Shown here in pieces: positions 1 to 17,051 of a stretch of 64,000 nt of DNA (within the stretch, counting starts at the first letter, position 1; every line of letters begins with the position of its first letter). Below the pieces are notes generated by a model. That model was not told where the DNA came from, did not search any database, and worked only from the letters and a program-made list of their open reading frames with translations. Location of the stretch: the NCBI GenBank assembly GCA_903877165.1, contig CAIRCU010000032.1:16747-80746 (forward strand), read 5' to 3'. This DNA comes from Methanobacteriota archaeon. Lineage in GTDB: Archaea > Thermoplasmatota > E2 > DHVEG-1. The position numbers and the translations under genes are program-made.

Positions 1-1013
1 GCTGCCGCGGCAGCCGATGCACTCGTCGGTCTTGAACTCGCAGGTCCCGCAGTGTCCTTGGAGGTACTGCTCGGCGAATCGCGCTCGTTTCATGAACGGA
101 TGGTCCATGGCCTGCTTCAAGGTCAACGAACCTTTCACTGAGGGGCGGACGTTGACGAAGTCGATGAGGACTGCGGCGCACGGCCGGGCATAGCCTTCGA
201 CTGTGATGCACATGCTGTATTCGAGCTGTCGGCATCCCGCGCCGACCAGGGGCGTGTGCACGTTCCAGTTCAACTTGTATTCTTTGTGGTCGATCTCGAG
301 GAGTTGGGCTTTGACTTCTTCGACTTCGGGGCCGGGGAGGACCCAGTCGAGGTGTCGTTTGGCTCGCCCGCTGGGTGTCATGGTTTCCATGTTGGGGAAG
401 ATGTTGTTGTCGCGGCAGAATCGCCACATCGTTGGGATTTCCTCTCGGGTCAAACGATTCAAAACGAAGGATAACCCGAGGCGTACGGTCGGTCCTTTCG
501 TAAACCCAAGGTCCATGAGGTTCTTCAGACCCGTCTCGATGTTCTTGTACGCGCCTTTCTTTCCCGCCATGAGGTCCTGGGTCGCCTCCGTGATTGAATC
601 ATGTTTCAGGAGGATTGACGCGTTGTTTTTATAGAGGAATTCAGAAAGCTTGCGATCCATGTTCTGTCCGTTGGTGATGATGACGGGGATCATGCCGAGA
701 CCGTGGATGATTTCAACGAGTTCTTTGAAGCGGGGGTAGACGGTGGGTTCGCCGCCGCCGATGATGACGACGGAGCGTGCACCGAGGTCTTTGGCCTGGT
801 GGACGATGTTTACGAGCTCTTCGTAGGTCATCTCGTTGTCTTTGGGTTCGCCGCTTTCGCGGTAGCAGTACTCACAGCGCAGGTTGCACAGAAGGCTTGT
901 TTCCAGACGCAAGGCAAGCAGACGGTTGCTGTCCCGGGCCTGCCTGGCTTCTTTGTTGCTGTAGAGGTACCCTTCGAGGACGGGAGGGTGGTGATACTGG
1001 ACAGTGGGCATTA
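1..1013 (-). CDS. radical SAM / SPASM-domain enzyme, anSME/peptide-maturase-like (partial; C-terminus runs off the window start)
   Basis: Manual minus-strand translation from ATG at ~1011-1013 reads MPTVQYHHPPVLEGYLYS... CNLRCEYCY (CX3CX2C) ... VVIIGGGEPTVYP ... C-terminal Cys clusters CRQLEYSMC..RPCAAV and GHCGTCEFKTDECIGCRG (SPASM-like). No stop codon before the window edge. Absent from the ORF track only because no stop lies in the window. Confidence 0.7.
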
Positions 1014-1255: not shown

Positions 1256-3073
1256 ATGGAAGCAATAACACGAAGAAGCGTCTTCATCTATGGAATTGTA
1301 TTTCTTTTACTTGGTACAAGCATTCCTTTACAGGTTCGCAGTGGAATGACTGAGTCTATGATTCTTAGTCACTCTGGAGATGGGAATTATGACAATAATC
1401 ATTCTACAAGCGATATAGATTGGTGGCCGATGTTCGGTCACGATCTTGCTCGTAGTGGATATAGCACGTCGAAAGCACCAAACACAAAAGAGTTGTTATG
1501 GAAATTCGATGCAGGAAATCCAATTTATTCATCCCCAACGGTCGCGGATGGAAAAGTGTTCATCAGCTCTCATGGTGAACCTAAAATGTTTTGCTTAAAT
1601 GCGACCGACGGCATGAAGTTGTGGGAATTCGCAAGCTCTGAAGATATGAGTGCCGCTGCTATCATAAACGACAGAGTCTACTTTTGCTCTGACACTGGTT
1701 ACGCTTATTGCTTGAATGAAACTACTGGAACTATCATATGGTCTCTGTTAACTGATTCAACGACTCAGTTAACCTCATCGCCTGCGGTCATAGATGGAAA
1801 AGTTTACTTTGGTTCAAGTTACCATAAAATGTACTGCCTCAATGCTGATAACGGGACAGTCATCTGGATTTTCAATACAGGAACAAATGGTTACGTTGGC
1901 TCTTCACCCGCTGTTGTCAATAACAAGGTGTTTTTCGGATGTCAAAACAAGAAGATATACTGCCTGAACGCGACTACAGGTACACAGATCTGGAATTATA
2001 CAACTGGAAATGAAATAGACCTTTCCACTCCATGTATATGGAACGACAAACTTTACATAGCCTCAGAAGACAGCGACGTGTATTGTATAAATGTCTCCAC
2101 TGGCGAAAAAATTTGGAATTACTCGACAGGAGGAACCCTGGATTCATCTCCCGTTATCGCCTATGGAAATGTCTATATCGGCTCCTGGGACTGGAAATTC
2201 TATTGCTTAAATGCAACATCAGGCATAAAAAAATGGGATTATTACATCGGAGACGTGGTACTATCCGCTGCCGCCGTCGCCGACAATAAAGTATACGTTG
2301 GCGCCCATCATCAATTATTTTGTTTCAACGCAACGACCGGAGTCAAAATTTGGGAGTACGCAACAGGAAACTATGTGTATTCATCTCCCGCCATTGCCAA
2401 TCGCAAGGTCTACATTGGCTCTACCGACCATAAATTCTACTGTTTTCGAGATAACCACAATCCCAATGCACCAAATTCTGCCTATCCATCAAATGGATCA
2501 ACCGAAATACCGCTCAAAATAAACCTCAGCTGGGCTGGTGGTGACCCAGATATCGAAGATACTGTGACGTACGACGTTTATTTTGGGACAGCCACTCCTC
2601 CATTAAAAGTTGCAAGTAACCTTACAACAACTACGTTCAACCCAGGGCCGCTCTGGTACAATACAACGTATTTTTGGAAGATAATTGCCTGGGATAACCA
2701 TCATGCATCTACCTCTGGGCCGATCTGGAAATTTACTACGATCAAAGACGTTACACCGCCCAGTGTTGAAATTTCACAGCCGAAGACCGGTTATCTCTAT
2801 TACAATGACCAAGAGATCATGAAAAGAATCTTTTCAAAAAATACACTTATCATCGGGCCATTGAACATCACCGTCAATTCCACAGATAACCAGACGGGAG
2901 TCAACCGTGTCATGTTCTATATTGATGACCTCCTTAGCGCGAAAATTACCTCAACTCCCTATACCTGGCTTTGGTCCCAAAAAATGTTTTTCAAACATAA
3001 AATTACGATTATATCCTATGACAATGAAGGCAATAGTAACAAGGTTGAATTATCTGTAGTCAAATTTCTTTAA
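1256..3073 (+). CDS. secreted PQQ-like beta-propeller repeat protein with C-terminal fibronectin-III/Ig-like domains
   Basis: N-terminal hydrophobic signal/anchor. About 8 tandem blades with recurring YCLNATTG(T/V)xIW / SSPAV motifs. C-terminal FN3-like segment (TYDVYFGT...WKIIAWD). Coding GC (~42%) is far below the window average (~60%). Confidence 0.75.
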   Translation: MEAITRRSVFIYGIVFLLLGTSIPLQVRSGMTESMILSHSGDGNYDNNHSTSDIDWWPMFGHDLARSGYSTSKAPNTKELLWKFDAGNPIYSSPTVADGKVFISSHGEPKMFCLNATDGMKLWEFASSEDMSAAAIINDRVYFCSDTGYAYCLNETTGTIIWSLLTDSTTQLTSSPAVIDGKVYFGSSYHKMYCLNADNGTVIWIFNTGTNGYVGSSPAVVNNKVFFGCQNKKIYCLNATTGTQIWNYTTGNEIDLSTPCIWNDKLYIASEDSDVYCINVSTGEKIWNYSTGGTLDSSPVIAYGNVYIGSWDWKFYCLNATSGIKKWDYYIGDVVLSAAAVADNKVYVGAHHQLFCFNATTGVKIWEYATGNYVYSSPAIANRKVYIGSTDHKFYCFRDNHNPNAPNSAYPSNGSTEIPLKINLSWAGGDPDIEDTVTYDVYFGTATPPLKVASNLTTTTFNPGPLWYNTTYFWKIIAWDNHHASTSGPIWKFTTIKDVTPPSVEISQPKTGYLYYNDQEIMKRIFSKNTLIIGPLNITVNSTDNQTGVNRVMFYIDDLLSAKITSTPYTWLWSQKMFFKHKITIISYDNEGNSNKVELSVVKFL

Positions 3074-3122
3074 ATCGAACTACACTGTAAAATAAAAAAT
3101 AGTAATCTTCAGAATTGCGACG

Positions 3123-3210
3123 GGAGAAAAAAACCGATAGAACCTACCTTTCTTGCCCTATTAACTGCAATCCCTTCGAGAATCGAGAAAGAGCTCGTTG
3201 AGAGATGAAC
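3123..3210. repeat. imperfect direct repeat copy 1 (~75% identical to 5226..5309); contains a degenerate tRNA-Pro 3'-end-like segment (gagctcgttgagagatgaac)
   Basis: Manual alignment. gagaaaa..cgatagaacc.ac.ttt..ccctattaac..aatccct...gagaa...cgttgaga.tgaac is shared with the region immediately 3' of and overlapping the tRNA-Pro gene. Confidence 0.5.
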
Positions 3211-3295
3211 AATGCTAAAAATGAGGGAGTCTGGTTGAACGGGATTGGTGCCACGAACATCCTGTCTTTGTCAAGGATGAAGACGGAGGACTTTC

Positions 3296-4174
3296 TCAAT
3301 GTTTCGGTTTCACAGCTACAACGGTTCCGAAATGAATGATTTTCGCTAATCCGAGCATGTCGCCGATGACGACGGCCCCCATGTAGAAATAATCATCATT
3401 TTCCGGTCTGTATTTTTTCCCAAGCAAGAGTCGTTTTATCACGGAAGCGGTGAAAAAGTACGGACCCAGGCACGTTGATCGTGCGACCGATGGTAGGATT
3501 GTCTTCGTCAGGTCTTCTACGACGACGTCTTCGAACCCATTTTTTTCAAGCAAGGTCTTGAGGTCTTTCAGGCTGATGAGGTCTGGGAATCCTCTGGCTG
3601 GACGCCAAATGTCGAGGACTTTGCGGCTCAATGATGTGAGCGGTTCATCCCGGATGAACCCGTCAAGGATGACAAACCGGCCGCCAGGCTTAATGACTCG
3701 ATACATTTCCCGAATCATCTCTTCCTTGTTCTGGGCGTAGTTATGGGACTCTTGGGCAAAGGCGCCGTCAAAATAGTTATCAGGAAACTCCGTGTGACGA
3801 TAATTCTGCAGCAGGAATTGTGTATTGTTTGTGACTCCTTCTCGTCTCGCTAACTCCTGGGCGAGCGGAATCTGATTTCGCGTAATGGTGATGCCGATGA
3901 AGGTGCTCTTTGGGAAGAGCTTCGCCAGCTGCGTCGAGGGCCCGCCGACCCCGCAGCCCGCATCGAGAATCACCCAGGATTTATCCTCAGAGATTCCTAG
4001 CAATTTACCGGCATAGTAATTCATGTAGTGCAGCGATTCGTCGAAGGAATGAACTCCTTTAACATGCATGCCGAAGTGGATAGCATGCGCATCATCGCCC
4101 TGCCACCACTTGACGAAATGCGGCCAATGACGTTCGTAGAAATCTTCTACCCCGGATTCAGGATTGTCTCCCAT
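3296..4174 (-). CDS. class I SAM-dependent methyltransferase (gamma-tocopherol/MPBQ/sterol-MT-like)
   Basis: VILDAGCGVGGPSTQLA motif I. N-terminal FYERHW...W..H.G and C-terminal IKPGGRFVILD segments are typical of the gamma-TMT / Methyltransf_11 group. Confidence 0.7.
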   Translation of the reverse strand: MGDNPESGVEDFYERHWPHFVKWWQGDDAHAIHFGMHVKGVHSFDESLHYMNYYAGKLLGISEDKSWVILDAGCGVGGPSTQLAKLFPKSTFIGITITRNQIPLAQELARREGVTNNTQFLLQNYRHTEFPDNYFDGAFAQESHNYAQNKEEMIREMYRVIKPGGRFVILDGFIRDEPLTSLSRKVLDIWRPARGFPDLISLKDLKTLLEKNGFEDVVVEDLTKTILPSVARSTCLGPYFFTASVIKRLLLGKKYRPENDDYFYMGAVVIGDMLGLAKIIHFGTVVAVKPKH

Positions 4175-4185
4175 GGTTTCACCGT

Positions 4186-5103
4186 TTACAAGATACTTGC
4201 CACCACTAAACTGATGATGAAGAGATAATTGTGGAGCGCTGCAATAAGCAGCGTGAGTTTGGACGTCCGAAGAAAGAGAGTCGTATCATTATAATTTTTT
4301 AATGCGTTGACGACAGAGACCACCGCCAAGGGAACCGTGATGAAAACGACCGCGCTCCAAACGGGGATTAGCTTGCTGTATAAAAGGATCGCGTCGCTGA
4401 CGAAGATAAGAACAAGCATGACGCCATACGCCACGACCGTCCTCTTCTTCCCTAATACGATGACCAGATTGTTTTTCTTCACTTTCTTATCCGCGTCGTA
4501 ATCCGGTATGGAAAGGATCATCCCGACGATCAATCCAATGAACGTAAAGGGAATCGCAAAGAGCATGATGGCTGGATCCAGAACACGCGTCTGCACAAAA
4601 TAGGCTCCAAAGAGCATGACGGGTCCATAGCCAATGGCTTGCGCGATTTCGCCAAAACCTCGATAGCATAACTTCACCGGAGGCGCTGTATAGAAAAAGA
4701 CAAGGAAAAAACCAAGAAGGCCCAAGAGAAGAATTGTGACGCCATCGAGAACGAAGTTCAAGTACAATCCTATGATGGAAGCGAACACTAACAAGGCGAT
4801 GGAGACACGAAAAATCGTTTTCTCTGCAATTAGCCCTTCTTGAATGACCCGGCTTCCCCCGGAAAACGGTGTCGTCACCGGATTGAGGTCATCAGCCTTT
4901 AACACATGGTCGTAGTAATCATTCAATAAATCCGTGCTGACCAAGACGGCAGTCATCGCAATCCACGTTAACAAAAACAACCACCAATTAAAGACGCGAT
5001 GCGTGTAAAACGCAAACGCTGTGGCAACAAAAATCGGCGACGACCCCGAGATCACCATATGGAAGCGCGTTGCCCGAAACCATAATCTCAAGCCCATTGC
5101 CAA
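4186..5103 (-). CDS. UbiA-superfamily aromatic prenyltransferase (MenA-like; NDYYD motif)
   Basis: Polytopic membrane protein. Asp-rich motif LNDYYDHVLKADDLN. Second motif IPDYDADKK...IVLGKK. Confidence 0.75.
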   Translation of the reverse strand: MAMGLRLWFRATRFHMVISGSSPIFVATAFAFYTHRVFNWWLFLLTWIAMTAVLVSTDLLNDYYDHVLKADDLNPVTTPFSGGSRVIQEGLIAEKTIFRVSIALLVFASIIGLYLNFVLDGVTILLLGLLGFFLVFFYTAPPVKLCYRGFGEIAQAIGYGPVMLFGAYFVQTRVLDPAIMLFAIPFTFIGLIVGMILSIPDYDADKKVKKNNLVIVLGKKRTVVAYGVMLVLIFVSDAILLYSKLIPVWSAVVFITVPLAVVSVVNALKNYNDTTLFLRTSKLTLLIAALHNYLFIISLVVASIL

Positions 5104-5225
5104 AAAAATAACGTGAAATGAGTTATATAGCTTATTTAAATTGGAGAAAAAAGGAACCCTAGCCTTATATGATGTTCTTTAGGCATGCTCCTTAAAACCA
5201 GGCCATCTAGCAGGACAGTGAGGTC

Positions 5226-5309
5226 AGGAGAAAATCGATAGAACCCACTTTTTACCCTATTAACCGAAATCCCTCCTATAACGGAGAATGGGCCCGTTGA
5301 GATTTGAAC
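5226..5309. repeat. imperfect direct repeat copy 2 (overlaps the 3' end and downstream flank of tRNA-Pro)
   Basis: See 3123..3210. Shared segment aggagaaaatcgatagaacccactttttaccctattaaccgaaatccct...gagaatgggcccgttgagatttgaac. Confidence 0.5.
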
Positions 5310-5361
5310 TCAAGTCACTTGCACCCCAAGCAAGAAGGATACCAAGCTACCCCACGGGCCC
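5289..5361 (-). tRNA. tRNA-Pro (anticodon GGG)
   Basis: Reverse complement GGGCCCGTGGGGTAGCTTGGTATCCTTCTTGCTTGGGGTGCAAGTGACTTGAGTTCAAATCTCAACGGGCCCA. 7-bp acceptor stem, anticodon stem CTTGC/GCAAG with loop TTGGGGT (U33, G37), T-loop TTCAAAT, no encoded CCA. Confidence 0.85.
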
Positions 5362-5435
5362 AGGGGATACCGGGTGCTAAGGGTGCATGCTGACAAGCCT
5401 TAATATAGTTTATTCGATTCAACTCCCCTGGTACC

Positions 5436-5720
5436 ATGAACATCGACGTCATCACGCTCCTCGGCGTGGCTGCCGGCGCCGTCACCTCCATCGGCTTCAT
5501 CCCGCAACTGCTGAAAGGCTACCGCACGAAACGCCTCACTGACGTCTCGTACGGCATGCCACTGTTCCTCACGTTCGGTATGAGCCTCTGGCTCGCCTAC
5601 GGACTCTTCCGTAACGACCTCGCGATCATCCTTGCGAATGCCTTCGGCGTCAGCTGCAATCTGCTCCTCGTCATACTGAAACACCGGTACACATCCAACG
5701 ATAAAACTGACAATTCTTAA
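5436..5720 (+). CDS. SemiSWEET / PQ-loop (MtN3-like) small membrane transporter
   Basis: 94 aa with three TM helices. PQ motif GFIPQLLKGYRTK after TM1. Confidence 0.55.
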   Translation: MNIDVITLLGVAAGAVTSIGFIPQLLKGYRTKRLTDVSYGMPLFLTFGMSLWLAYGLFRNDLAIILANAFGVSCNLLLVILKHRYTSNDKTDNS

Positions 5721-5795
5721 ATACTAGGGTCCCGCATATCTCCACAGAAACGCTGTACGAGACCTAAAATCGACTCACGTAATGAAGCGGCAACC

Positions 5796-6425
5796 ATGAA
5801 TGAGAATCCACCTGCGGCCCGCCGGAAAACAACCATGGCGGTCATCCTCATCAAGCTCATCTCCAACACCTTCTGGGAGATAGCGGACTACTTCTCCTAC
5901 AGAAGTAAAAGCGCAGCCCGGCTCTACGACACCATGATCGGTGGCGAGTACCAAGAGGAGTACGAACATTGCGGCGTCGCCAGTGCCAAGAACATCCTAC
6001 ACATCGGCTCCGGTGCATACCCGCTTACCGAGATGGCGCTCGCCGCGGTCAGCAACGGCCAGGTCGTCGGCATCGACAAGAAACCCGCGACCGTCGCCAA
6101 AGGCACCAAAGTCATCCAACGCCGCGGCCTCTCCAACCATATCACCATCCAGCATGGCGACGGCAGAAACTATCCCGTCTCCAAGTACGATACGATTATC
6201 GTCTCCAGCTGCAGCATCCCAAAGATTCCAATCCTAGAACACCTCGCCAAAGCCGCGCAACCCAAGACGCACATCATCGTCCGGGAAGTCGACATCGCCT
6301 GCCCCTACATCGAAGACTTCCTCGCCTCTCACCCGAACATGGTGATCTCCGACCGGATCCGACACAACCCCTTCCCATTCATCTACCCCATCGGTTGGAT
6401 GACATTCCGGATTCAGAAACAATAA
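5796..6425 (+). CDS. putative SAM-dependent methyltransferase-like Rossmann-fold protein (paralog of 10923..11576)
   Basis: ILHIGSGAYPLTE (Gly-rich motif I), VVGIDKK (acidic post-I), IQHGDGRNYP, DTIIVSS. Motif-for-motif match with 10923..11576. Directly upstream of a UbiA gene. Confidence 0.45.
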   Translation: MNENPPAARRKTTMAVILIKLISNTFWEIADYFSYRSKSAARLYDTMIGGEYQEEYEHCGVASAKNILHIGSGAYPLTEMALAAVSNGQVVGIDKKPATVAKGTKVIQRRGLSNHITIQHGDGRNYPVSKYDTIIVSSCSIPKIPILEHLAKAAQPKTHIIVREVDIACPYIEDFLASHPNMVISDRIRHNPFPFIYPIGWMTFRIQKQ

Positions 6426-6466
6426 GATTATTAAGACCTCTAGGTTGTTTTTCCCCCTAACTACCC

Positions 6467-7480
6467 ATGACCCAAGAGCCCACCCGACCACGCTTCTTCC
6501 ACAATCCCTTACATTTCCTGGTGACCTGGAGATCGTTTCCCGTCTATGAGCTCCTCGGCTATATCTTCATGTTTTCAGCTTCTATCATGTTTGCGTTCGG
6601 CATCCATCGCTACGCCACACAGGACTACATCGTTATCATCCTTTCCGTGGCGACTATGTACTGCGGGTTCTTCGCCGCACTCATCTGGAATGATATCACG
6701 GATCAGGATATTGACACCGTCGTTCACCCGACGCGCCCCATCCCAGGCCGGCGTATTTCTCCCAAGACGTTCTTCGGGATAGCTTTGGTGTTCTCCGCCT
6801 TGACCTTCCTCTTCGCACTTATTCTCAGTCCATGGTGCTTCATTTTGGTGGGCGCCGCTGCGTTGTTCACCGCGGTCCATAACCGCTACTTGAAGAGACT
6901 CATCAAACTCCCGGCGTACTCCGAGATCTTCACCCCGGTGCAATGGCTGGTCGTCCCCCTGTTCGGGTTCTTCGTCGTCTGGACGGTTCTGCCACACTCC
7001 GCTGACATGTTCTTCACCCTGCCCTTGCTCGGCACGCTCTCCATAGCGAAGGCGGATCTGCTACCGATGGCGCTGCTGGTGCTGTTCACATATTTCGCGG
7101 ATGATGCACATGATGTCGCGGAAGGCATCCGTGACATGGAAGGCGACCGCATCTTAGGCGTGAAAACCTATGCCATTTCGTTTGGGCCACGGACCGCGGC
7201 CGCCGTGTCCTTCAGCATGGTCGTTCTCGCCGGCATCCTCGGCATCCTCCTGTACTATTTCACGCTCCTCTCAGAGGTCTTCCTCATCCCGTTCCTCATC
7301 TTCTGGGCGTACACCCTCATCTTTTTCTATCAACTCCTGAGAACAAAGGATCTGATACAACAAAAGAAGCTTGGGCGGATGGTCGGTCGAAAAGGCTACA
7401 ATTTCCTGTTGTTCTCTTACATCTTGATGTTCATCGATCTCGCTCTGCAGCTGACGCTGGCACTGTCTCGGTCCTGCTAG
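6467..7480 (+). CDS. UbiA-family prenyltransferase
   Basis: NDITDQDIDTVVHPTRPIPGRRISPK first Asp-rich motif. DDAHDVAEGIRDMEGD second motif. About 8 TM helices. Confidence 0.75.
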   Translation: MTQEPTRPRFFHNPLHFLVTWRSFPVYELLGYIFMFSASIMFAFGIHRYATQDYIVIILSVATMYCGFFAALIWNDITDQDIDTVVHPTRPIPGRRISPKTFFGIALVFSALTFLFALILSPWCFILVGAAALFTAVHNRYLKRLIKLPAYSEIFTPVQWLVVPLFGFFVVWTVLPHSADMFFTLPLLGTLSIAKADLLPMALLVLFTYFADDAHDVAEGIRDMEGDRILGVKTYAISFGPRTAAAVSFSMVVLAGILGILLYYFTLLSEVFLIPFLIFWAYTLIFFYQLLRTKDLIQQKKLGRMVGRKGYNFLLFSYILMFIDLALQLTLALSRSC

Positions 7481-8403
7481 TGCTGCGGAGATAAGAGTCT
7501 GACGAGGAGGGCCATCTGCGCCCACAGCCGGTTCTCTGCTTCATCAATGATGACGGACTGAGGGCCGTACGCGACGTCTTTGGTGACTTCTTCGCCGTAA
7601 CAGATGGGCATGCAATGCATGAAAATTGCATCCGGCTTCGCCTTCTTCATGGTCTCCTGAGTGATGGTATAGTTCTTGAAAGCCTTGAGTCGTTCTCGGC
7701 GCTCGTTTTCGTACCAGAGAGAAATCCAGGTGTCGGTCGCGACAATGTCTGAGCCGGCGACCGCGGCAAGGTCCTCGGTAATGGTCACAGACCGTTTCTT
7801 TTTTGCAGCGACTTCCTTGGCCGTGCGGATATAGTAGTCCTGCGGCCAGTATTTCTTTGGTGAGATGACCGTGACGTCCATACCCACCATAGCGCAACCA
7901 AGCATGTAGGAATGGGTGAGGTTGTCATCTCCATCTCCGATGAACGTAAAATGCAGGCCTTGGAGTCGGCCCTTTTTTTCTTTGATGGTCTGGAGGTCTG
8001 CGAGGATCTGACAGGGATGTTCGAGTATGTCCAAACCGTTGATGACCGGAACAGTAGCGTAGGTCGCGAACTCCTGAAGGTTCTTCTCTTCTATGGCACG
8101 GTACATGATAATGTCGGCATAACGGGAAATGACCAAGGCGATATCCTGGGGGGATTCCCGGGTACCGGTGCCGACCTCTTCTTGTGAGAGGTAGACTGCA
8201 TGGCCGCCCAGCATGGTCATGCCGACTTCGAAGGAGACCCGGGTGCGCGTCGAGGCGCGCTCAAAAAGCATAGCGAGGGTTTTACCTGGGAGGTATTGGA
8301 TCGGTTTGCCTTCGTGCTTCTCTCGTTTCAGCTGGATAGCATGGTCGATGATGAATTCGATGTCGTCTTCGACATCGAGGATGGAGAGGATGTTTTTCTT
8401 CAT
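7477..8403 (-). CDS. ornithine-carbamoyltransferase-family transcarbamylase (SMG motif replaced by SLW)
   Basis: STRTRVSFEVGM carbamoyl-phosphate motif. HPCQILADL. FIGDGDDNLTHSYMLG. FMHCMP (HCLP-like). The ornithine-binding D-x-x-x-SMG position reads DTWISLW. Confidence 0.7.
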   Translation of the reverse strand: MKKNILSILDVEDDIEFIIDHAIQLKREKHEGKPIQYLPGKTLAMLFERASTRTRVSFEVGMTMLGGHAVYLSQEEVGTGTRESPQDIALVISRYADIIMYRAIEEKNLQEFATYATVPVINGLDILEHPCQILADLQTIKEKKGRLQGLHFTFIGDGDDNLTHSYMLGCAMVGMDVTVISPKKYWPQDYYIRTAKEVAAKKKRSVTITEDLAAVAGSDIVATDTWISLWYENERRERLKAFKNYTITQETMKKAKPDAIFMHCMPICYGEEVTKDVAYGPQSVIIDEAENRLWAQMALLVRLLSPQH

Positions 8404-8462
8404 GAAAACCCGGCTCCTTTGAAACCCCCTGATGTATATTAACGTTGTGAAGAACGTACCTC

Positions 8463-9779
8463 TTAGTCTTCAGGGAGGATGGTCTCGCGCGGGATCCTGG
8501 TAACGTCGAGAGATTGTCTTGTGTATGAGACTCGTGGGCGTGGCGCGAGCTGCAGGGTGGTTGAGGATTTTTTCTTCCGAGGATGGGATTCGATGTCGAT
8601 GGTGATCCCAAGGCCGTGTGGCGGTTTGAGGATGGTGAGATGGACTGCGGTGTGGCCATGGCTTGGGGAGTGGCGCAGCGGTACGTTCTTGCAGAGTCCT
8701 TGAAGCGCGGTAGTCTGGCCGTCGTCGGTGAAGGTGCCGTCGACGCGGCCGGGTAGTTCACAGAGGATGTAAGCGCGGAAAAATTTCTGTTGGGTCGGGA
8801 TGTCGATGTATTCGTAGCCGTCAGTGGTGGAGGTGAACCGTAACTTGATGGTCTTGTTGCCGAGTTTGCCGGTGACTTCCATGTCGCTGGGGTAGTAGAT
8901 GTCGTAGTCTTTGAGGTAGATGACTTTGGTGTATCTGAAGTGGACGTCGCAGAATTCCCAATATTTTTTCCCGTCTGGGGTGACGTAAAGGGTGCCGAAG
9001 GCTGGTCCGTCGTTGACCCATAGGAGGCTGTTGCCGAAGAAGAAGCTCCAGCCGTTGTCGCAGACGCCCCAGAGCCAGTCGTAGCCCAGCATATTGTTCT
9101 CGGTGGCGAAGCCGATACGGCTGGGGAGACGGTGGTGGTGCTGTGAGAACCACCAGTAGAAGAGGCGCAGGTACGTGTCCAGGGTCGTGCGCATGCCGCT
9201 CAGTCGTTGCAGGGGTTTTTCGTACGACCAGTTCCCGTACGCATGTTCGAGGTAGCCTTTGCCGTCCAGCGTGAAGGTCTTACCCTGCAGGGTCATGGTG
9301 CCGGTGAGGGCGCAGTGGGGGATGAACCCGTAGCGGTAGTGGTTGAGGCCGATGGGGAGGATGCCGTTGGTGGTCTCCTGGGTGATCCAGTGCGGGAGGG
9401 CCCGGGCGTCCATGTCGATGTCGGTGCTAAAGCCTTTGGCGTCGTCCTGGTGGTGGAGGTGGTACTTGGGGTACAGCCCCTGGAACGTGGTCTGCTTGTA
9501 TCGTAGGTCGATCCTGTTTTTCGTGGTGGTCAGTTCGCTAAGGTTGTCGTTGAGGTCCTTGTGTAGGACGCATTTTCCTGTGGTGAGGTCGATGAGGACG
9601 TATTGGAAGAAGCAGGAGGGCGGATCTTGGGTGACTGCGAACGATGTCATGAGGTTCCAGGTGTGCTGGTCATCGCGTGTGGTGAAGAAGAGTTCGGACG
9701 TCCACCATTCCTTCTTGATGGGGTGGTGGTCGCCTTCGTCTTGCGGCGTCCAGGGGTTCGCTGGTTCCATGGGTTCCAT
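8463..9779 (-). CDS. hypothetical protein, possibly CrtC/AttH-like (lipocalin-like hydratase fold)
   Basis: N-terminal KKEWWTSELFFTT segment resembles the EWWY motif region of the CrtC/AttH family and the REWWYFTAVF of 15702..17051. W/Y-rich beta-type composition. Lies between UbiA gene clusters. Confidence 0.35.
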   Translation of the reverse strand: MEPMEPANPWTPQDEGDHHPIKKEWWTSELFFTTRDDQHTWNLMTSFAVTQDPPSCFFQYVLIDLTTGKCVLHKDLNDNLSELTTTKNRIDLRYKQTTFQGLYPKYHLHHQDDAKGFSTDIDMDARALPHWITQETTNGILPIGLNHYRYGFIPHCALTGTMTLQGKTFTLDGKGYLEHAYGNWSYEKPLQRLSGMRTTLDTYLRLFYWWFSQHHHRLPSRIGFATENNMLGYDWLWGVCDNGWSFFFGNSLLWVNDGPAFGTLYVTPDGKKYWEFCDVHFRYTKVIYLKDYDIYYPSDMEVTGKLGNKTIKLRFTSTTDGYEYIDIPTQQKFFRAYILCELPGRVDGTFTDDGQTTALQGLCKNVPLRHSPSHGHTAVHLTILKPPHGLGITIDIESHPRKKKSSTTLQLAPRPRVSYTRQSLDVTRIPRETILPED

Positions 9780-9828
9780 AGGTGCCGGGCTCTCGTCCGC
9801 CTCGAAACGAGACGGTGAAATATAACCT

Positions 9829-10866
9829 TTGTCACTTGAAGGGAGGCTCTTAAGATTTATATGCGATTCACGAATTCGTAAGACCCTTGAGAGACGCGAG
9901 AGGATGACGATTTCTACGAAATTATTCGCTCATCTTGAGGCCATGCGGCCGTACACCCTGCTGTGGTGCGGTCTCGTCAGCCTCACAGGCGCAGTCCTCG
10001 CATCGCAGACGCTGCCTACTACGGCGGCCCTGATTTTCCTTGTCCCCATCCTCGGCTGGATCGCAGGGTTGTACCTCGCGGATTATTCCGACCGAAATTT
10101 GGACCGCATCCAAAAACCACACCGTCCGATCCCCTCCGGGCGCATCAAACCAAGCGAGGCGCTCCTCGTCGGCGCCGTCTTCGCCCTCGTAGGGCTTGCG
10201 CTCACCTTCATGCTCAGCCTGATAAACGTTCTGCTGACCTTCCTTGCCGCCGGCCTCGTCTACGTGTACGCCCGCTGGACGAAACCACGAGGCCTCCTGG
10301 GGAATCTGACGAGGGGGCTGCTGACCATGACGACGTTCCTCTTCGGCGTCGCCGCCGTCCACCCCGTGTCATCGTTGTCCCTTCCGATATGGATTGTCGC
10401 CGTGGTCTTCTTCATCCATGACACGAACAGCAACATCATCGGCGCCCTGAGGGACGTGACCGGAGACCAGGCCGCCGGTTGCACCACCACCCCGGTCCGC
10501 TACGGCATGCACATCGCGCTGCTCATCTCCCTGGGACTCACCCTCCTCTACCTCGGCATCACCATCACCCTCGTTGGCTCTAGCACCCTGCTCTCCTACC
10601 CCTCCTTGTTTTTTCTCATCCTAAGCCTGGGAATCGTTCTTCTCGGTATCATGTATGTCCTCCTCTTCCATTCGATCCACGCGCCATCCCAAGGACGAAT
10701 GCTACGTGCCCATGAGCTGTTCGTCGGCGAGCGCATCCTGTTCGCCTCCGCGTTCATCGTCGGATTCTTCGGTCTCACTGCATTCGCCGTCATCCTGACC
10801 GCATCCTGTCTGCTGCTCACCCTCCTGTCGCAGCACCTCTTGCGCAAACGCTACGAACTCACGTAA
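9829..10866 (+). CDS. UbiA-family prenyltransferase
   Basis: DYSDRNLDRIQKPHRPIPSGRIKP motif. Second motif HDTNSNIIGALRDVTGD. Polytopic membrane protein. Confidence 0.7.
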   Translation: MSLEGRLLRFICDSRIRKTLERRERMTISTKLFAHLEAMRPYTLLWCGLVSLTGAVLASQTLPTTAALIFLVPILGWIAGLYLADYSDRNLDRIQKPHRPIPSGRIKPSEALLVGAVFALVGLALTFMLSLINVLLTFLAAGLVYVYARWTKPRGLLGNLTRGLLTMTTFLFGVAAVHPVSSLSLPIWIVAVVFFIHDTNSNIIGALRDVTGDQAAGCTTTPVRYGMHIALLISLGLTLLYLGITITLVGSSTLLSYPSLFFLILSLGIVLLGIMYVLLFHSIHAPSQGRMLRAHELFVGERILFASAFIVGFFGLTAFAVILTASCLLLTLLSQHLLRKRYELT

Positions 10867-10922
10867 CCCCAGGGTGGAACCAGCACCTTTAAAGCACCCG
10901 TACCATATCTCAAGAGGGAATC

Positions 10923-11576
10923 ATGCCGTCCTCATTCATGACTCGCGTCTTCTCCCTTGCCCACCGGGTCGTCTTCCAAGAGGTCGGCAACAAGATTCCG
11001 ACGAACGCTCTGAAAACACTCATGGACCTCGGCTTCATTGTTTTTGAAAAAATGGGCGTCAAATTCCCTGCCATCTCCAACATATACCTGCGGTTCTACG
11101 AATCAGTCGTCCAACAAGAAGCGATGCTCGCCCAGGTCTCCAAAGGAGACAGCGTCCTCGTCATCGGCAGTGGCTCGCTGCCGGCGACGCCAATCCTCAT
11201 CGCGCGGTACACCGACGCCCACATCGTCTCCATCGACCGGGACCCCCAGGCCGTGAAAGCCAGCACCGAGTACATCCGCCGCATCCACCTCGACGACCGA
11301 CTCACCATCGCCTACGGCGAAGGACTCACCTACCCCGCCAAGGACTTCTCCGCCGTCTTCATCCTCTACGGTGTCAAGAACACACAAGCGGTCTTGGCCT
11401 CACTCCCCGACAGGATCTCGGACCATTGTCGCGTGATTCTGCGTCTCATGAGCGATAAGAACCACCAACTCCTCGACGACCTCGACATCACCAGCTACTT
11501 CACCATTAAAAAACAGGTGCACACGACCGTGCTTGGTTCGTTCGAAGCACTCCTACTTGAGAAAAAAACAACCTAG
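10923..11576 (+). CDS. putative SAM-dependent methyltransferase-like Rossmann-fold protein (paralog of 5796..6425)
   Basis: VLVIGSGSLPATP, IVSIDRDP, IAYGEGLTYP, SAVFIL. Adjacent to a UbiA gene. Confidence 0.45.
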   Translation: MPSSFMTRVFSLAHRVVFQEVGNKIPTNALKTLMDLGFIVFEKMGVKFPAISNIYLRFYESVVQQEAMLAQVSKGDSVLVIGSGSLPATPILIARYTDAHIVSIDRDPQAVKASTEYIRRIHLDDRLTIAYGEGLTYPAKDFSAVFILYGVKNTQAVLASLPDRISDHCRVILRLMSDKNHQLLDDLDITSYFTIKKQVHTTVLGSFEALLLEKKTT

Positions 11577-11662: not shown

Positions 11663-13810
11663 TCATGGGATGCTTCTTGGTCCTTTCCCTTTGTACACTG
11701 CCTCTGTGAAGTTTATCTGGCGCATGCGCGGCTGTGATGCGACCTCTTCGAAGTAATGGGCGGATAGACCCGCTATCCTCCCGTAGATGAAGAATGCTTT
11801 TGCCATCGAAGGGTCGAGTTTCATATCTGCCACTATGGCTCCGATCACCCCGTCGACGTTGATTGGCAGGCTCATTCCTCTCACCTGTTCAAAGATCGTG
11901 CTCACTATCTTGGAGAGCTGTACATGCTCACCAGCGACACCGGTCTGAGCGGAAAGCGCCCACAGCACGTCTCGGCGCGGGTCTTTTGTATGCAATCGAT
12001 GGCCTAAGCCTTCGATGCGTTTTCCTTCTTCGACGTACGTCCTCATGATCTCTCTGGTGGCTTGCGCGATGTCGATGTTCTCCTTCTCTGATTTCCTGAT
12101 ACATTCGTTGAAAAGCGCTGCTGCCTTCGCACCAGCGCCACCATGCACATCGGTTATCGCGCCGACGCCTTGAGCCACAGCGACCTCAAAAGGCGCTCTC
12201 GTGGATGCCGCGATGAGCGTCGCTTGGGCAGACGGGGGAGTCACCCCGTGGTCCACGCAGGCGACAATCATTGCTTCAATCATCCGAGACTGCTGTTCAT
12301 TCACTGTTGGATTCCCGGTGACTGCACGGTAGATGACATGTGAAAATGGTTCATTTCCACTACTCCTTTCTAGGGCTTTTTCCGTGTCCAATATTCCGCT
12401 GAGGTACCGAGCAACCCGGCCGAGGCAGAAAATCGTTTTTTTCACAGCTCCCTCTGTTCCAGCCTCAGGGAACTTCGCGAGTTCCTCGTCAAGGACGAAA
12501 TATTTCACCAGTGTTTTTGAGATATCCTCATTTTTCATGCGTGTGACTTTCGGGATGGGTCTTTGTGCTGCGTCGACAGCGATCTTTCGCATTTCCTCGA
12601 GGATTTTTTTATCGGGGAACTCTCCTTTTACGAGGAGGTAGGCCGTCTCAAGAAAACCCTTTTTCTCCACGATGTCCTGTAAGGAGTACCCAGAGATCAT
12701 CAGGTTATTTGGCATGACCTTGGTAACGAGGGTCCCCCACCCAGGTTTCTTAAAGGGTGCATCCCAGATCGTCTTCATTTTTTTGTAGTAGTTCTCCACA
12801 TCGAAGTAGGTTTTTTTCACAAGTCTCTTCTGAACCTCGGTGATGAGATCGTACTGGCTGTTCACCACGGGGACACCCGCGTTTTGCAAAGCGGTCTTCT
12901 TTGACTGGAACGTCCCGTAGACCTGCCCGGGGGAGACGATGGCGCCTGCATGGCCCATAGTTTTTCCCTCAGGGGCGTGCGCCCCGGAGATTAACGCGAC
13001 GAGTGGCTTTGGGTATTTCTTCGGGTTTTTCTTGATGTCATCTGCGAGGAGCTCTTCTTGGCATCCGCCGATTTCACCGGCGACGACGACGAGGTCAGTG
13101 TTCTTATAAGCCATGGCGAGTGGGACGAGGTCGCGGAATGTCGAGCCTATAGCACCGTCTCCGCCGACGCCGATCACAGCGTTTTGTGCGATGCCGACGC
13201 TTGCTAGTGCATCTGAGAGATGATACAGGATGGCGCCGCTTCGAGAGATGATGGTGACCCCTTTTGGCCCAAAAGCCTCAGGGGAGACTTCCTCGGGATA
13301 GAACACATCAGGGAGCATCCCTGCTTTGATTCCCTCTGGAGGGAAGATGACTCCGGGGGTGTTCCCGCCGATGAGTACGGTTTTGTGTTTCCGTGCTGCG
13401 ACAAGGATATCGCGGACGTCTTTCAACGGGATCCCTTCGCTGATGAGGATGACGACAGGGATGTCTGCTTCGATGACGTCGATGGTCGCATCCTTCGCGG
13501 TGGAATAATGCCGCCAGATGCTCGCGACTGCGATGTTGGGATGTTCTTTGAGGCATTCGCTGATGGTGTCGTAGACCGGTATCGTCTCAAGGAGCCGTGT
13601 TCCTCCGCGACCTGGGGCGATACCTGCCGTGATGGTTGTTCCGTACTGCTGCATGAGCTCCGCGTGTCGTGTCCCTTGTCCTCCAAGGCCGACGACCACG
13701 GTTTCGATGATCCCGGTTTGTTTGATTTTTTTCGCAAGATCCGGTCGTTTGTTCTCGATGATGTAGTAGAGCATTCCTTGATCCGGGGGCACGAGCTTCA
13801 TGGCTTCCAC
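11663..13810 (-). CDS. aclA: ATP-citrate lyase large subunit (CoA-binding/ligase domains plus citrate-synthase-like citryl-CoA lyase domain)
   Basis: N-terminal [12 protein letters not shown] CoA-binding region. Succinyl-CoA-synthetase-alpha-like segment. C-terminal citrate-synthase-fold segment with DVHGGAG. Start overlaps the aclB stop. Confidence 0.7.
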
Positions 13811-15081
13811 CCCTTGGATTCAAGCGCTTTTTGGATGCCCTCGCGGATCACATCTGCCATGATCCGCTGGTTTCCCACGTAAATGGTCACGTATCGTAAT
13901 GCTTCCGGATTCTCCAGTTTCGCTCGTTCTAGGAACGTCCGTGCGCTGGGGAGATCGGTGCCGACCATCCTGCCATAGATAGGCACCATTCGTTTGCCGC
14001 TCTCATAGCGTTCTTTGACTGCTTGTACCATGCCGCGGATGAAGATGTCGCAGCTGGAGATACCGCCGAACCGTGAGGTGACGATGAGGTCGACGACTGG
14101 GTAATCCATGAGGAGGTGGAACATCTCAGCGACCCTGTTTTGTGGAGGCCCTCCGCCGCTGTCCATGAAATTCACGGGAACGACCCGGTCATGGAAGTAG
14201 CGATTACCGATGGTGGCTACCTCATCGATGGAGAAGATCCCGTATCCTGCGCCGCCGGGGATGAGGCCGACGTAGAGTTTCTTCGGGTCTTTCGTAAACG
14301 TCTCTGGTAAGAGATCGATGTACGGGAACCCCGCGGACTGCGCGCGCAGCTCGTTCTTCGTTCGTTCCGCCACGTCATGTCGTTTTTCTGTGATGCCAAG
14401 CATTTCAAGAAGCTCGACTTGTCTGAAGAGCGCGTTGTCGTCGAGTACGAGTTTTGCATCCGCTGCGACCGCACCCGTAGGGGTGATAATCAGGGGATTG
14501 ATTTCGCAGAGTCGGGCGTCGAACCGTTGATAGGTCGCGTACACCTGCGCGATGATATCTGCAAGGCTACCTGTGATATCTTTTTTATTCTTCAGTTGTG
14601 CAGCGAGGAACGCAGCGAGTTCGCGGGTTAGATTTTTCGAAAGCTCCTTGGCGTTATCCGGTAGTTCTCTCTTGATGATTGCCTCTGGTTTCTCCACCGC
14701 CACCTGCTCGATATCAACGCCTCCTGAGGCACTGACGATGACGACGTTGTTGAATGTGGCCGGGTCCATGGTGATGCCGATGTAGCACGCCCCGGCTTCC
14801 TCGACTACCTCTTCGAGGAGAATGCATTCCACGGGGAATCCTTTGATCACGAGCTTGAACAACTCCGTAGCTATTCTTTTTGCTTCCTCTCTGTTTTTCG
14901 CTTTTTTGATGCCGCCTGCTTTGCCTCTGCCGCCGACCAGCACCATGGATTTCAACATCACAGGGAATTCCATTGGTATTGCATCAAGCTCGTTGGGAGA
15001 ATGAATCACGCCGTACTGTTTCGGGGTGGGGATTCCCATGGTCTGAAAGACTTTTTTCGCCTCGTACTCGTACAGCTTCAT
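13798..15081 (-). CDS. aclB: ATP-citrate lyase small subunit (ATP-grasp, succinyl-CoA synthetase beta-like)
   Basis: MKLYEYEAKKVF...GIPTPK N-terminal ATP-grasp signature. GGRGKAGGIK. Forms a translationally coupled pair with 11663..13810. Confidence 0.7.
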   Translation of the reverse strand: MKLYEYEAKKVFQTMGIPTPKQYGVIHSPNELDAIPMEFPVMLKSMVLVGGRGKAGGIKKAKNREEAKRIATELFKLVIKGFPVECILLEEVVEEAGACYIGITMDPATFNNVVIVSASGGVDIEQVAVEKPEAIIKRELPDNAKELSKNLTRELAAFLAAQLKNKKDITGSLADIIAQVYATYQRFDARLCEINPLIITPTGAVAADAKLVLDDNALFRQVELLEMLGITEKRHDVAERTKNELRAQSAGFPYIDLLPETFTKDPKKLYVGLIPGGAGYGIFSIDEVATIGNRYFHDRVVPVNFMDSGGGPPQNRVAEMFHLLMDYPVVDLIVTSRFGGISSCDIFIRGMVQAVKERYESGKRMVPIYGRMVGTDLPSARTFLERAKLENPEALRYVTIYVGNQRIMADVIREGIQKALESKGWKP

Positions 15082-15701: not shown

Positions 15702-17051
15702 GTGTACAGGAAGATATTAATAAAGAGAAAGCGGAATAAAAACCTAAGTCAACTGGTGAGAACCTTCATGCCTCGTAGATTGCGGACGATTGACGTGTGT
15801 ATCGTCGTTGGTTTATTGGTCGTTTCGACCGGTTTCCTCTACAAGGCAGAGTATCTTGCTCCTCTTTTCCCCACGTCTTCTCCACCAGTGACACCAGTTG
15901 ATACGAACACAACGTCTCCTGTGGTTGTGCCACCGACCTCCCTAGTCCCGTCGGTTCGTCGGGATGTTTCCGGGGATGATGAAGGTATGCATTTCGATAG
16001 CCTGCGCGTCTCGCGGGAATGGTGGTATTTCACCGCAGTGTTCAACGGTTCGAGTAACAATCTTGGTGAGTGGGCTGCTGCGATTGCGTTCGCCCATCTT
16101 GCGCCCGGGGATCTCCTGGGGACCGCGAAGCCCGACCTCCTGGTCGTCAGTCTTCTTGATTCGTCTGGTGCGCAGTACGGCGGCATGGTCAACAAACGGC
16201 ATTACCTAGGGATTCTGAAGAGCGGTACGCTCGTGGCGAGCACTCCTGGTGTGAAACTCAGCTATGATTCGTCTTGGGTGGAGGGCACGGCACCCTCGTG
16301 GCATGTGCACGCGGAGGATGCGGAGATCGACACGGCGCACACTGTGGTCATCGATCTGGATTATCATGCACAGGCGCTTCCGTTGTGGACGCTTGGGACG
16401 AAGGCGTTCGAACTTTCGAACAGCACACTAGCAAGTTATGTGTTCCTTGACTGTGAGATCTCCGGGACGGTGTCGATCGACGGCGTCGTTCATCAGGTCT
16501 CGGGTGTGGGCACGTATGAGCATACGTGGTCGCCGCGCGCCGTGACCCGAGCGGAGATCAACGGCTGGGACTGGTTCAGCATCAAGCTTGATAACGGCTG
16601 GATGGTCTATGCCTCGAACTATCTGCCGACGCCGCAGGCGCTGACTGAGAAAATCTCGGCGCTTCCTTCGTTTGGTACAATCGTCATCACCACGGATCAT
16701 GGGGAGACGTGCACGGAGCTGAAGAACCTGAATGTCAAGGTCACGACGCAGGATGAGAAGGTGTTCCCCTTGGTGAAGATGCCGTCTGCGTTTGATCTGG
16801 ATGCGTCGCCGAGCCTCAATCCGACGTACCTGGTGAGTCAGTCGCTGCTTCTCGGTACGGATTTGTCGTTGACGGCGAACGGCTCTGTTGTGAATTCGGT
16901 GGATAAGATTTGGAACTTCCCGACGTACGTGGGTATGAAGCTTGGGTACGTGGACATTAGCGGGGAGTTGTCGTGGTCTGATGCGACCGGCGAGCATGCT
17001 GTCCCCTTCAGCGGGATCGGCGTCTCGTGGAGCATGCGGGCGCTACTGTAA
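15702..17051 (+). CDS. membrane-anchored extracellular protein, CrtC/AttH-like domain with Thr/Pro-rich linker
   Basis: N-terminal TM helix. PVTPVDTNTTSPVVVPPTS linker. REWWYFTAVF motif and beta-rich body. Weak resemblance to 8463..9779. Confidence 0.35.
   Translation: MYRKILIKRKRNKNLSQLVRTFMPRRLRTIDVCIVVGLLVVSTGFLYKAEYLAPLFPTSSPPVTPVDTNTTSPVVVPPTSLVPSVRRDVSGDDEGMHFDSLRVSREWWYFTAVFNGSSNNLGEWAAAIAFAHLAPGDLLGTAKPDLLVVSLLDSSGAQYGGMVNKRHYLGILKSGTLVASTPGVKLSYDSSWVEGTAPSWHVHAEDAEIDTAHTVVIDLDYHAQALPLWTLGTKAFELSNSTLASYVFLDCEISGTVSIDGVVHQVSGVGTYEHTWSPRAVTRAEINGWDWFSIKLDNGWMVYASNYLPTPQALTEKISALPSFGTIVITTDHGETCTELKNLNVKVTTQDEKVFPLVKMPSAFDLDASPSLNPTYLVSQSLLLGTDLSLTANGSVVNSVDKIWNFPTYVGMKLGYVDISGELSWSDATGEHAVPFSGIGVSWSMRALL

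Follow-up and report, generated by a model that had tools for sequence, protein, structure and literature searches.

Organization of the locus

We analysed a 64,000-nucleotide stretch of DNA (hereafter the window; positions 16,747 to 80,746 of contig CAIRCU010000032.1, assembly GCA_903877165.1) from an archaeon of the Thermoplasmatota and, within it, a gene group at 3296-11576 that combines three UbiA-superfamily prenyltransferase genes with genes for S-adenosylmethionine (SAM)-dependent enzymes, an ornithine transcarbamylase (OTC)-family enzyme and a 438-residue protein, X438. A preliminary description of this DNA had presented the group as triplicated pairs of a UbiA gene and a methyltransferase gene, and all nine open reading frames (ORFs) that it named were recovered in place. 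The stretch is nevertheless two separate things: (i) an inserted two-gene cassette (3211-5210) and (ii) a core cluster that is conserved in related genomes (5436-11576).

All three prenyltransferases matched Pfam UbiA (PF01040) well above its gathering score of 34.2, as expected from the earlier call, and each of their genes adjoins a gene for a Rossmann-fold SAM enzyme (Table 1). The core runs from a SemiSWEET gene through the small Rossmann protein Ross209, UbiA337, the OTC-like gene, X438 and UbiA345 to a second small Rossmann protein, Ross217, with the OTC-like and X438 genes placed between the second and third UbiA pairs. The G+C content of the whole window is 0.556, and Rfam reported only two tRNAs in it.

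The pairs are not triplicates of one another. The prenyltransferase of the first pair, which resembles MenA, had no phmmer similarity to either core UbiA protein at E < 1e-3, while UbiA337 and UbiA345 are 25% identical to each other (E = 6e-10) and the orthologues of each form a series of their own in other genomes. Because mutual similarity is low or absent and the orthologue series are separate, the three UbiA proteins are old, distinct families.

Table 1. Genes and other features in and around the locus, with positions in the window. NAS, nicotianamine synthase; DGGGP, digeranylgeranylglyceryl phosphate; HMM, hidden Markov model.
Feature	Position	Strand	Basis
Radical-SAM gene, 3' part, rSAM383 type, runs off window start	4-975	-	tblastn, 58% identity to L001 rSAM383
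Direct-repeat copy, distal, about 100 nt, with degenerate fragment of tRNA-Pro 3' end	3110-3210	.	Cassette left border; repeat search and pairwise alignment
MT292, class-I SAM methyltransferase, 292 aa	3296-4174	-	Pfam Methyltransf_11/25/31 and UbiE-type matches
MenA/UBIAD1-like UbiA prenyltransferase, 305 aa	4186-5103	-	Pfam UbiA 90 bits
Direct-repeat copy, tRNA-proximal	5211-5309	.	Cassette right border; overlaps tRNA-Pro 3' end
tRNA-Pro (GGG)	5288-5362	-	ARAGORN and Rfam
SemiSWEET (PQ-loop) transporter, 94 aa	5436-5720	+	NCBIfam SemiSWEET_2 (NF037968) 82.9 bits, passes cut-off of 80
Ross209, short NAS/CntL-like SAM-dependent enzyme, 209 aa, putative 3-amino-3-carboxypropyl transferase	5796-6425	+	
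UbiA337, divergent DGGGP-synthase-like prenyltransferase	6467-7480	+	Pfam UbiA 90.6 bits
OTC-family carbamoyltransferase, 308 aa, remodelled SMG (second-substrate) loop	7477-8403	-	ArgF HMMs
X438, AttH/CrtC-fold protein, putative isoprenoid double-bond hydratase	8463-9779	-	Family HMM matches and AlphaFold model
UbiA345, DGGGP-synthase-type prenyltransferase, probable start 9904	9829-10866	+	Pfam UbiA 112 bits
Ross217, second short NAS/CntL-like enzyme, 217 aa, paralogue of Ross209	10923-11576	+	CntL best NCBIfam match
X449, membrane-anchored X438 paralogue, outside the gene group	15702-17051	+	24% identity, E = 6e-10

The core cluster is conserved among Thermoplasmatota

A scan of one genome per species returned 32 loci with a relative of Ross209, 31 of them in uncultured Thermoplasmatota bins and one labelled Nanoarchaeia. 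The core gene order is kept in about 20 species-level Thermoplasmatota metagenome-assembled genomes, plus metagenome contigs, at 45-75% protein identity; the median identity of relatives to the window proteins is 49-70%. A lack of conserved synteny in relatives would have counted against the preliminary description; gene order there is strongly conserved. Among long records, the 785-kb contig CAVYNH010000006.1 and the 472-kb contig CAWIEM010000010.1 carry the cluster, and CP070724.1 just a distant Ross209 homologue. With variable members in square brackets, the common order is tRNA-Pro, SemiSWEET, Ross209, [radical SAM], UbiA337, OTC-like (opposite strand), [third NAS-like gene], X438 (opposite strand), UbiA345, [short-chain dehydrogenase/reductase (SDR)], Ross217, B12-radical-SAM (opposite strand) and ATP-citrate-lyase. 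The SDR, B12-radical-SAM and radical-SAM genes are the usual accessory genes in relatives, and two or three NAS-like paralogues occur per cluster.

Adjacencies were counted over 34 related loci. SemiSWEET lies beside Ross209 in 21 loci and UbiA337 beside the OTC-like gene in 21 of 21, the UbiA337 orthologues of these loci being 48-69% identical. UbiA345 adjoins the SDR gene in 17 loci and X438 in 15. Ross209 and UbiA337 are neighbours in 15, and in seven more a radical-SAM gene directly follows Ross209 (in six it stands between Ross209 and UbiA337). Operon-like spacing is retained as well, with 41 nucleotides between the co-directional Ross209 and UbiA337 genes and 8-57 nucleotides within UbiA345-SDR-Ross217.

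The gene set stays together despite internal shuffling, which includes insertions of radical-SAM and MT152 genes and relocation of X438. X438 has moved next to the B12-radical-SAM gene in L022 and L023; its place is upstream of Ross209 in L035 and after Ross217 in L038, a locus without a B12-radical-SAM gene. In L039 the UbiA345-SDR-Ross217 operon survives at 45, 54 and 30% identity amid different surroundings, and an AttH-like gene is directly followed by a B12-radical-SAM gene.

The core prenyltransferases resemble DGGGP synthase

DGGGP synthase is the nearest characterised relative that sequence comparison suggests for both core UbiA proteins. In NCBIfam, UbiA337 scored 98 bits with PRK12884 and 63.7 bits with DGGGPS (cut-off 296), and UbiA345 scored 128 bits with PRK12884 and 115.7 and 113.8 bits with DGGGPS models (cut-offs 296 and 353), all of these being under cut-off. 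The best PDB match of both was the DGGGP synthase of M. jannaschii (6m31; E = 2.6e-19 for UbiA345 and 5e-8 for UbiA337). The Asp-rich motifs read from the translations are NDITDQDID and RDMEGD in UbiA337 and ADYSDRNLD and RDVTGD in UbiA345. Many UbiA345 orthologues are named "geranylgeranylglycerol-phosphate geranylgeranyltransferase" by the Joint Genome Institute (JGI), and UbiA345 is probably a DGGGP synthase orthologue. Its true start is probably Met26, which would give a protein of 320 residues as in the orthologues.

The small Rossmann proteins are short relatives of NAS and CntL

In the preliminary description Ross209 and Ross217 were mutually paralogous, methyltransferase-like proteins. 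Their paralogy holds (25% identity, E = 2e-15), as does the presence of a Rossmann SAM-enzyme gene beside each UbiA gene, but methylation does not fit the two small partners, which are closest to NAS and CntL, SAM-dependent aminocarboxypropyl transferases, and not to ordinary methyltransferases. In single-sequence NCBIfam searches CntL was the best match of both at 46 and 38 bits, far under its cut-off, and CntL was also the best solved match of Ross209, the sole copy searched against PDB sequences. A profile built from 20 family members matched CntL at E = 3e-16 and the nicotianamine-synthase-like enzyme MtNAS at 1.7e-7, compared with 1.5e-6 for the best true methyltransferase. Pfam NAS was the one family matched by all 20 members (best E = 4.8e-10), the window copies themselves scoring under its gathering score (22.8 for Ross209 and 20.7 for Ross217 against 27.1). 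The SAM motif GxGxYPLT agrees with GSGxxP(L/M)T of the NAS type, two residues invariant in the family, Y44 and E55, correspond to Y109 and E120 of CntL in the alignment, and Ross217 has the invariant Y/E and GSGxxPxT columns in common with Ross209. In MtNAS, Tyr107 and Glu81 serve in catalysis (PMC10491745; PMC10248798). Because the profile, Pfam NAS, the SAM motif and the Y/E columns all fit NAS/CntL, transfer of an aminocarboxypropyl group is the most likely predicted chemistry, with methyl transfer as the other option.

The family is large: at E up to 1e-10 it comprises 700 clusters (50% identity). Of the best 150 representatives nearly all stand alone, with lengths of about 150-240 residues, a few shorter entries look like fragments, and none is a Rossmann-UbiA or Rossmann-flippase fusion. 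In five confirmed loci (L025, L026, L030, L032 and L037) a stand-alone gene for LPG_synthase_TM, of the MprF flippase type, lies next to a Ross209 homologue of 33-42% identity; L029, which was outside the domain scan, resembles these by appearance. A Methyltransf_11 gene also stands beside the Ross209 homologue in L026, L028 and L032, and in L037 an LPG_synthase_TM-Methyltransf_11 fusion (9616-11283) lies directly downstream of it.

The OTC-family enzyme has a remodelled second-substrate loop

The OTC-like protein passes the ArgF cut-offs of NCBIfam (NF001986, 365 against 306; TIGR00658, 352.7 against 280.85), and the window copy retains the STRTR and HPCQ motifs and the arginine of ENR. In OTCases the SMG loop and a Lys two residues before STRTR bind ornithine (PMC4581275). 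In all 22 cluster-linked copies, DT(W/H)xS(L/F/Y/I)W (DTWISLW in the window) replaces the ornithine-binding DxWxSMG, Arg stands for that Lys (FER versus FxK; FERASTRTR in the window) and HCMP is found versus HCLP; one subclade also has SVRTR and HPTQ. The enzyme had been called a variant transcarbamylase, and the alteration of the second-substrate loop in every linked copy bears this out. These changes suggest that the second substrate is an amine other than free ornithine.

Putrescine transcarbamylase (PTC) also departs from SMG in this loop: the sequence there is DVWYGLY, Tyr233 blocks the site for the alpha-carboxylate, and exchange of YGLY for VSMG inverts the substrate preference (PMC3282769). 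The OTC-like protein was rejected as a PTC itself, since I-S-L-W does not match the 230-loop signature (Y/W)(G/W)(V/L/I)X, the C-terminal helix 13 is missing and the TIGR04384 score was 274.7 against 500. ENRxW..M was also considered as a clade-specific change but was dropped, human OTC being identical at these positions.

Of the genes of the group and 30 selected ORFs (at least 150 residues) scanned at 16-64 kb, none was recognisable as belonging to the arginine pathway. A class-III aminotransferase encoded at 26567-27886 could be ArgD-like.

X438 has an AttH-type fold

The window copy of X438 had no Pfam match. Nineteen of 42 family members match Pfam CrtC_N, the N-terminal lipocalin domain (best E = 1.1e-6), and the AlphaFold model of X438 has a mean predicted local distance difference score of 93.3 and a predicted template modelling score of 0.90. 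With this model Foldseek retrieved AttH NE1406 (2ich) at E = 1e-16 and a template modelling score of 0.74 on the target, and kievitone hydratase (7a0q) at E = 8e-14. The model thus predicts a two-barrel, lipocalin-like AttH fold, in agreement with the CrtC/AttH assignment made earlier. The AttH-like protein Hgs and the B12-radical-SAM desaturase Ted, whose genes overlap, make hydroxylated glycerol dialkyl glycerol tetraethers (GDGTs) (bioRxiv 10.1101/2025.10.20.683597). Hgs homologues are almost confined to Methanobacteriota and Bathyarchaeota, Thermoplasmatota lacking Hgs at the search threshold used (bioRxiv 10.1101/2025.10.20.683597). By its modelled structure X438 is a divergent family that shares the Hgs-type AttH fold.

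The paralogue X449 has, as read from its sequence, an N-terminal hydrophobic segment or membrane anchor and a Thr/Pro-rich linker, and is probably displayed outside the cell.

The first pair is a cassette at tRNA-Pro

The first UbiA-methyltransferase pair is not a module equivalent to the other two. The MenA-like gene was found in just 1 of the 34 related loci. The pair is lower in G+C (0.47 for the MenA-like gene and 0.50 for MT292, against 0.53-0.59 in core genes), and its genes are 86-88% identical to the copies in L001 (MT292, 88%), whose core genes are just 51-67% identical to those of the window. A direct repeat of about 100 nucleotides brackets the pair (71-77% identity, repeat families D3 and D5; 73% by pairwise alignment), and its proximal copy extends into the 3' end of tRNA-Pro. 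No integrase is present at the bracketed pair. Low G+C, repeats at the tRNA, high identity to L001 and presence in one locus are the usual signature of a mobile-looking cassette inserted at the 3' end of a tRNA gene. The tRNA-Pro occupies the same position in the six other loci checked (L001, L003, L005, L007, L008 and L017), and the site looks like an insertion hotspot because other genomes carry different methyltransferase genes on the 3' side of the same tRNA.

For the MenA-like protein, MenA models scored highest in NCBIfam but under cut-off (NF004751, 129 against 264; TIGR00751, 92 against 102), and human UBIAD1 (8djk) was the best PDB match (E = 1e-6). The best NCBIfam matches of MT292 were ArsM, geranyl diphosphate C-methyltransferase, UbiE and sarcosine/dimethylglycine N-methyltransferase, each under cut-off, and its closest PDB entries were AtmM/RebM and phosphoethanolamine N-methyltransferase; members of its 90% cluster carry the JGI name "tocopherol O-methyltransferase". 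Most likely the pair would prenylate and methylate a quinone-type ring. The window ORFs scanned, from the 64 kb of the genome that are visible, included no menaquinone ring-synthesis or other quinone gene.

Adjoining the cassette is a gene for a pyrroloquinoline-quinone-type beta-propeller surface protein (1256-3073, plus strand), whose G+C of 0.42 is the lowest of the region and which may also be foreign.

Genomic surroundings

Gene calls of the source contig just upstream of the window comprise LPG_synthase_TM, DedA/VTT, a fourth UbiA (316 residues) and the radical-SAM gene whose end is window 4-975, so that a span of about 16 kb holds at least four UbiA genes. Of the accessory genes of relatives, the SDR scored best with OleD, HpnA and SdmB models and the B12-radical-SAM protein with BchE, HpnJ, HpnR and a ladderane-lipid enzyme, all under cut-off. 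No phytoene synthase or desaturase was found among the genes of the group or the 30 ORFs scanned.

Downstream of the cluster, at a distance of 6-12 kb, AcnX (17456-18640), UbiD-type (21105-22415) and GHMP-kinase (22415-23374) genes on the minus strand form the set of the archaeal mevalonate pathway (phosphomevalonate dehydratase, anhydromevalonate-phosphate decarboxylase and mevalonate kinase). A two-gene ATP-citrate-lyase-like pair (11663-15081, minus strand) adjoins the cluster, and some relatives have instead a CitF-type gene with a short citrate-synthase-like gene (L003, 18116-20379). A stand-alone Cas4/PD-(D/E)XK nuclease gene lies at 23424-23960 (minus strand), with no CRISPR array or further cas genes seen nearby.

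A proposed role in membrane lipid synthesis

The identities of the genes, the folds, the motif changes and the conserved clustering are what the analysis shows. Substrates, order of steps and product of the core cluster we infer as follows, and we hold with moderate confidence that the cluster serves the synthesis or tailoring of an isoprenoid ether membrane lipid. UbiA345 and its divergent paralogue UbiA337 would attach prenyl chains to an acceptor of the glycerol-phosphate type or to a related polar one. Like Hgs, X438 would hydrate a double bond of an isoprenoid, yielding a tertiary alcohol, and in most relatives it has a B12-radical-SAM partner. Ross209 and Ross217 would transfer an alkyl group from SAM, most likely 3-amino-3-carboxypropyl, to a polar moiety of the lipid or of a precursor, and the OTC-family enzyme would carbamoylate an amine of the kind suggested above. 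A membrane ether lipid is a more likely target than a quinone or carotenoid because the core UbiA pair is DGGGPS-like and because of the JGI name of the UbiA345 orthologues. Also in favour of a lipid cluster are the conserved clustering, the fold of X438 with Ted/Hgs as a published precedent, the LPG_synthase_TM genes beside distant Ross209 homologues, the LPG_synthase_TM, DedA/VTT, fourth UbiA and radical-SAM genes just upstream of the window, the lipid enzymes with which accessory proteins of relatives score best, and the mevalonate-pathway genes downstream. Isoprenoid tailoring, which the preliminary description had proposed, is also our best reading, but its quinone or carotenoid target is not.

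A more specific version of the proposal is speculative, and we give it a rather small chance of being right. Here the NAS-like enzymes would add at least one SAM-derived 3-amino-3-carboxypropyl group to an ether lipid made by the DGGGPS-like enzymes and the OTC variant would then carbamoylate the amine so formed, resulting in a phosphorus-free head group of amino-acid type that possibly binds metal. If true, such a head group would be an archaeal counterpart of betaine and ornithine lipids made by unrelated enzymes, and it would define a new class of archaeal polar lipids with new biomarkers.

Several observations weigh against a lipid cluster, and some of them favour an account in which unrelated genes (a housekeeping DGGGP synthase, ArgF, a sugar transporter and SAM enzymes) are adjacent in one lineage that has had too little time to scramble them. 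The syntenic loci are all from Thermoplasmatota, and their synteny may partly be inherited order and not selection; core partners are lost around Ross209 homologues below about 42% identity, and ATP-citrate-lyase and a tRNA also lie within the conserved order. The OTC-like gene passes ArgF cut-offs and has the highest conservation in the set (median 70% identity), which is what one would see in a housekeeping gene, and its orientation is convergent with that of UbiA337, hence the two are not co-transcribed; a lineage-specific ArgF is a possible alternative for this gene. UbiA345 may simply be the housekeeping DGGGP synthase of the lineage, and the SDR and B12-radical-SAM genes are absent from the window by tblastn. 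Nevertheless, the genes remain together through shuffling, insertion and relocation inside the cluster, UbiA345-SDR-Ross217 is kept in L039 in other surroundings, every OTC copy has the same substrate-loop change, and the nearest families of most members are isoprenoid- or lipid-related. We regard inherited gene order as an unlikely explanation of the cluster, although one to be taken seriously.

Other points concern the small Rossmann proteins, in which most of the NAS N-terminal domain is lost (cut to about 60 residues) and no equivalent of MtNAS Glu81 was located. NAS-family enzymes are known for soluble products, and those reported for NAS-like enzymes chelate metals (PMC10491745). Among the best 150 representatives the sole fusion, P0432 (592 residues), a distant family member, joins two tandem NAS-like domains to FeoA, which points to metal chemistry. 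The cluster could accordingly make a soluble nicotianamine-like metabolite, with the NAS-like pair adding aminocarboxypropyl units to an amino compound that the OTC-like enzyme supplies or modifies, SemiSWEET moving the product or a precursor, and the UbiA and AttH-type proteins being mere neighbours or lipidating the chelator. The kinship with NAS and CntL, the two or three NAS-like paralogues per cluster and the SemiSWEET-Ross209 adjacency, the most conserved of all, are in line with this. However, no opine dehydrogenase (CntM-type) or metal-uptake gene was seen in the cluster, each NAS-like gene is tightly coupled with a UbiA gene in a conserved operon, and distant homologues adjoin LPG_synthase_TM lipid-type membrane proteins, which leaves a soluble product doubtful. 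The pathway as drawn in the preliminary description, in which three pairs act by prenyl transfer, methylation, hydration and carbamoylation on one prenylated quinone or carotenoid-like isoprenoid, draws on the MenA/UBIAD1-like gene of the first pair, on the tocopherol methyltransferase name in the cluster of its partner and on the carotenoid 1,2-hydratases among AttH-family enzymes. It fits the inserted pair only: that pair is an inserted cassette, and 33 of the 34 related loci are without its MenA-like gene; the core UbiA proteins resemble DGGGPS and not MenA, UbiA or LyeJ, no carotenoid or menaquinone ring-synthesis gene is present in the window ORFs scanned, and the small partners are not typical methyltransferases. 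We consider it very improbable.

All of the enzyme families involved are already known, and archaeal lipid clusters with AttH-like and B12-radical-SAM genes have just been described. As for the combination found here, which had been thought to be without characterised precedent, we found no paper describing this cluster or its composition. What is new is (i) the pairing of short NAS-like enzymes with DGGGPS-like prenyltransferases, (ii) a consistently altered OTC-family enzyme and (iii) a divergent AttH family in a phylum said to be without Hgs. An ether-lipid role would bring two families newly into the context of archaeal lipids, namely SAM alkyltransferases of the NAS-like type and an OTC-family carbamoyltransferase whose substrate loop is altered, and would extend the theme of AttH hydratase and B12-radical-SAM enzyme to that phylum. 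Short NAS-like proteins that stand alone also emerge from the analysis as a large family. The host Thermoplasmatota, relatives of Thermoplasmatales archaeon SM1-50 among them, are known from metagenomes only, and we found no description of their lipids in the literature. They are abundant in sediments, and to our knowledge orphan sedimentary lipids (hydroxylated, methylated and butanetriol tetraethers) are still without assigned producers.

Comparison with known systems

Compared with the DGGGP synthase of M. jannaschii (6m31), the core UbiA proteins differ in being two paralogues, each coupled to a NAS-like gene, in scoring far below the equivalog cut-offs and in having a fourth UbiA nearby. 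The menaquinone-type pathway, with MenA/UBIAD1 and a ring methyltransferase, has a likeness in the first pair, where a MenA-like gene is directly followed by a class-I methyltransferase gene, but this pair scores below the MenA equivalog cut-offs, its methyltransferase is not of the UbiE/MenG type and it is a mobile-looking cassette.

CntL (staphylopine) and MtNAS (thermonicotianamine) are the best profile and structural matches of the small Rossmann proteins, which have in common with them the GSGxxP(L/M)T motif and a conserved Tyr and Glu preceding it. CntL and MtNAS are 255-300 residues long and are partnered with opine dehydrogenases and metal transporters, whereas the Ross proteins, at 209-217 residues with a shortened N-terminal domain, are partnered with membrane prenyltransferases. 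The betaine-lipid (diacylglyceryltrimethylhomoserine) pathway of BtaA and BtaB, in which a SAM-derived aminocarboxypropyl group is put on a membrane lipid and then N-modified, is an analogy only. Genes for a methyltransferase and a flippase-like membrane protein likewise adjoin distant Ross209 homologues, but neither Ross209 nor Ross217 has a Pfam match to BtaA (DUF3419), and according to a review BtaA is not homologous to NAS/CntL (PMC10491745).

The OTC-like enzyme has the full fold and the carbamoyl-phosphate motifs of canonical OTC and differs from it at the SMG loop and in the Lys-to-Arg change. Its loop Trp occupies the alignment column of PTC Tyr233, which holds the Gly of SMG in OTC, so that the residue is aromatic in both the OTC-like enzyme and PTC.

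Ted/Hgs offers a parallel for X438. The B12-radical-SAM proteins that neighbour X438 homologues have 439-464 residues against at least 500 in Ted, and the window locus is without such a gene. In both systems an AttH-fold protein is encoded among archaeal lipid genes, and in L022, L023 and L039 its gene lies directly beside a B12-radical-SAM gene. By analogy X438, like Hgs, would be expected to hydrate a double bond of an isoprenoid and form a tertiary alcohol.

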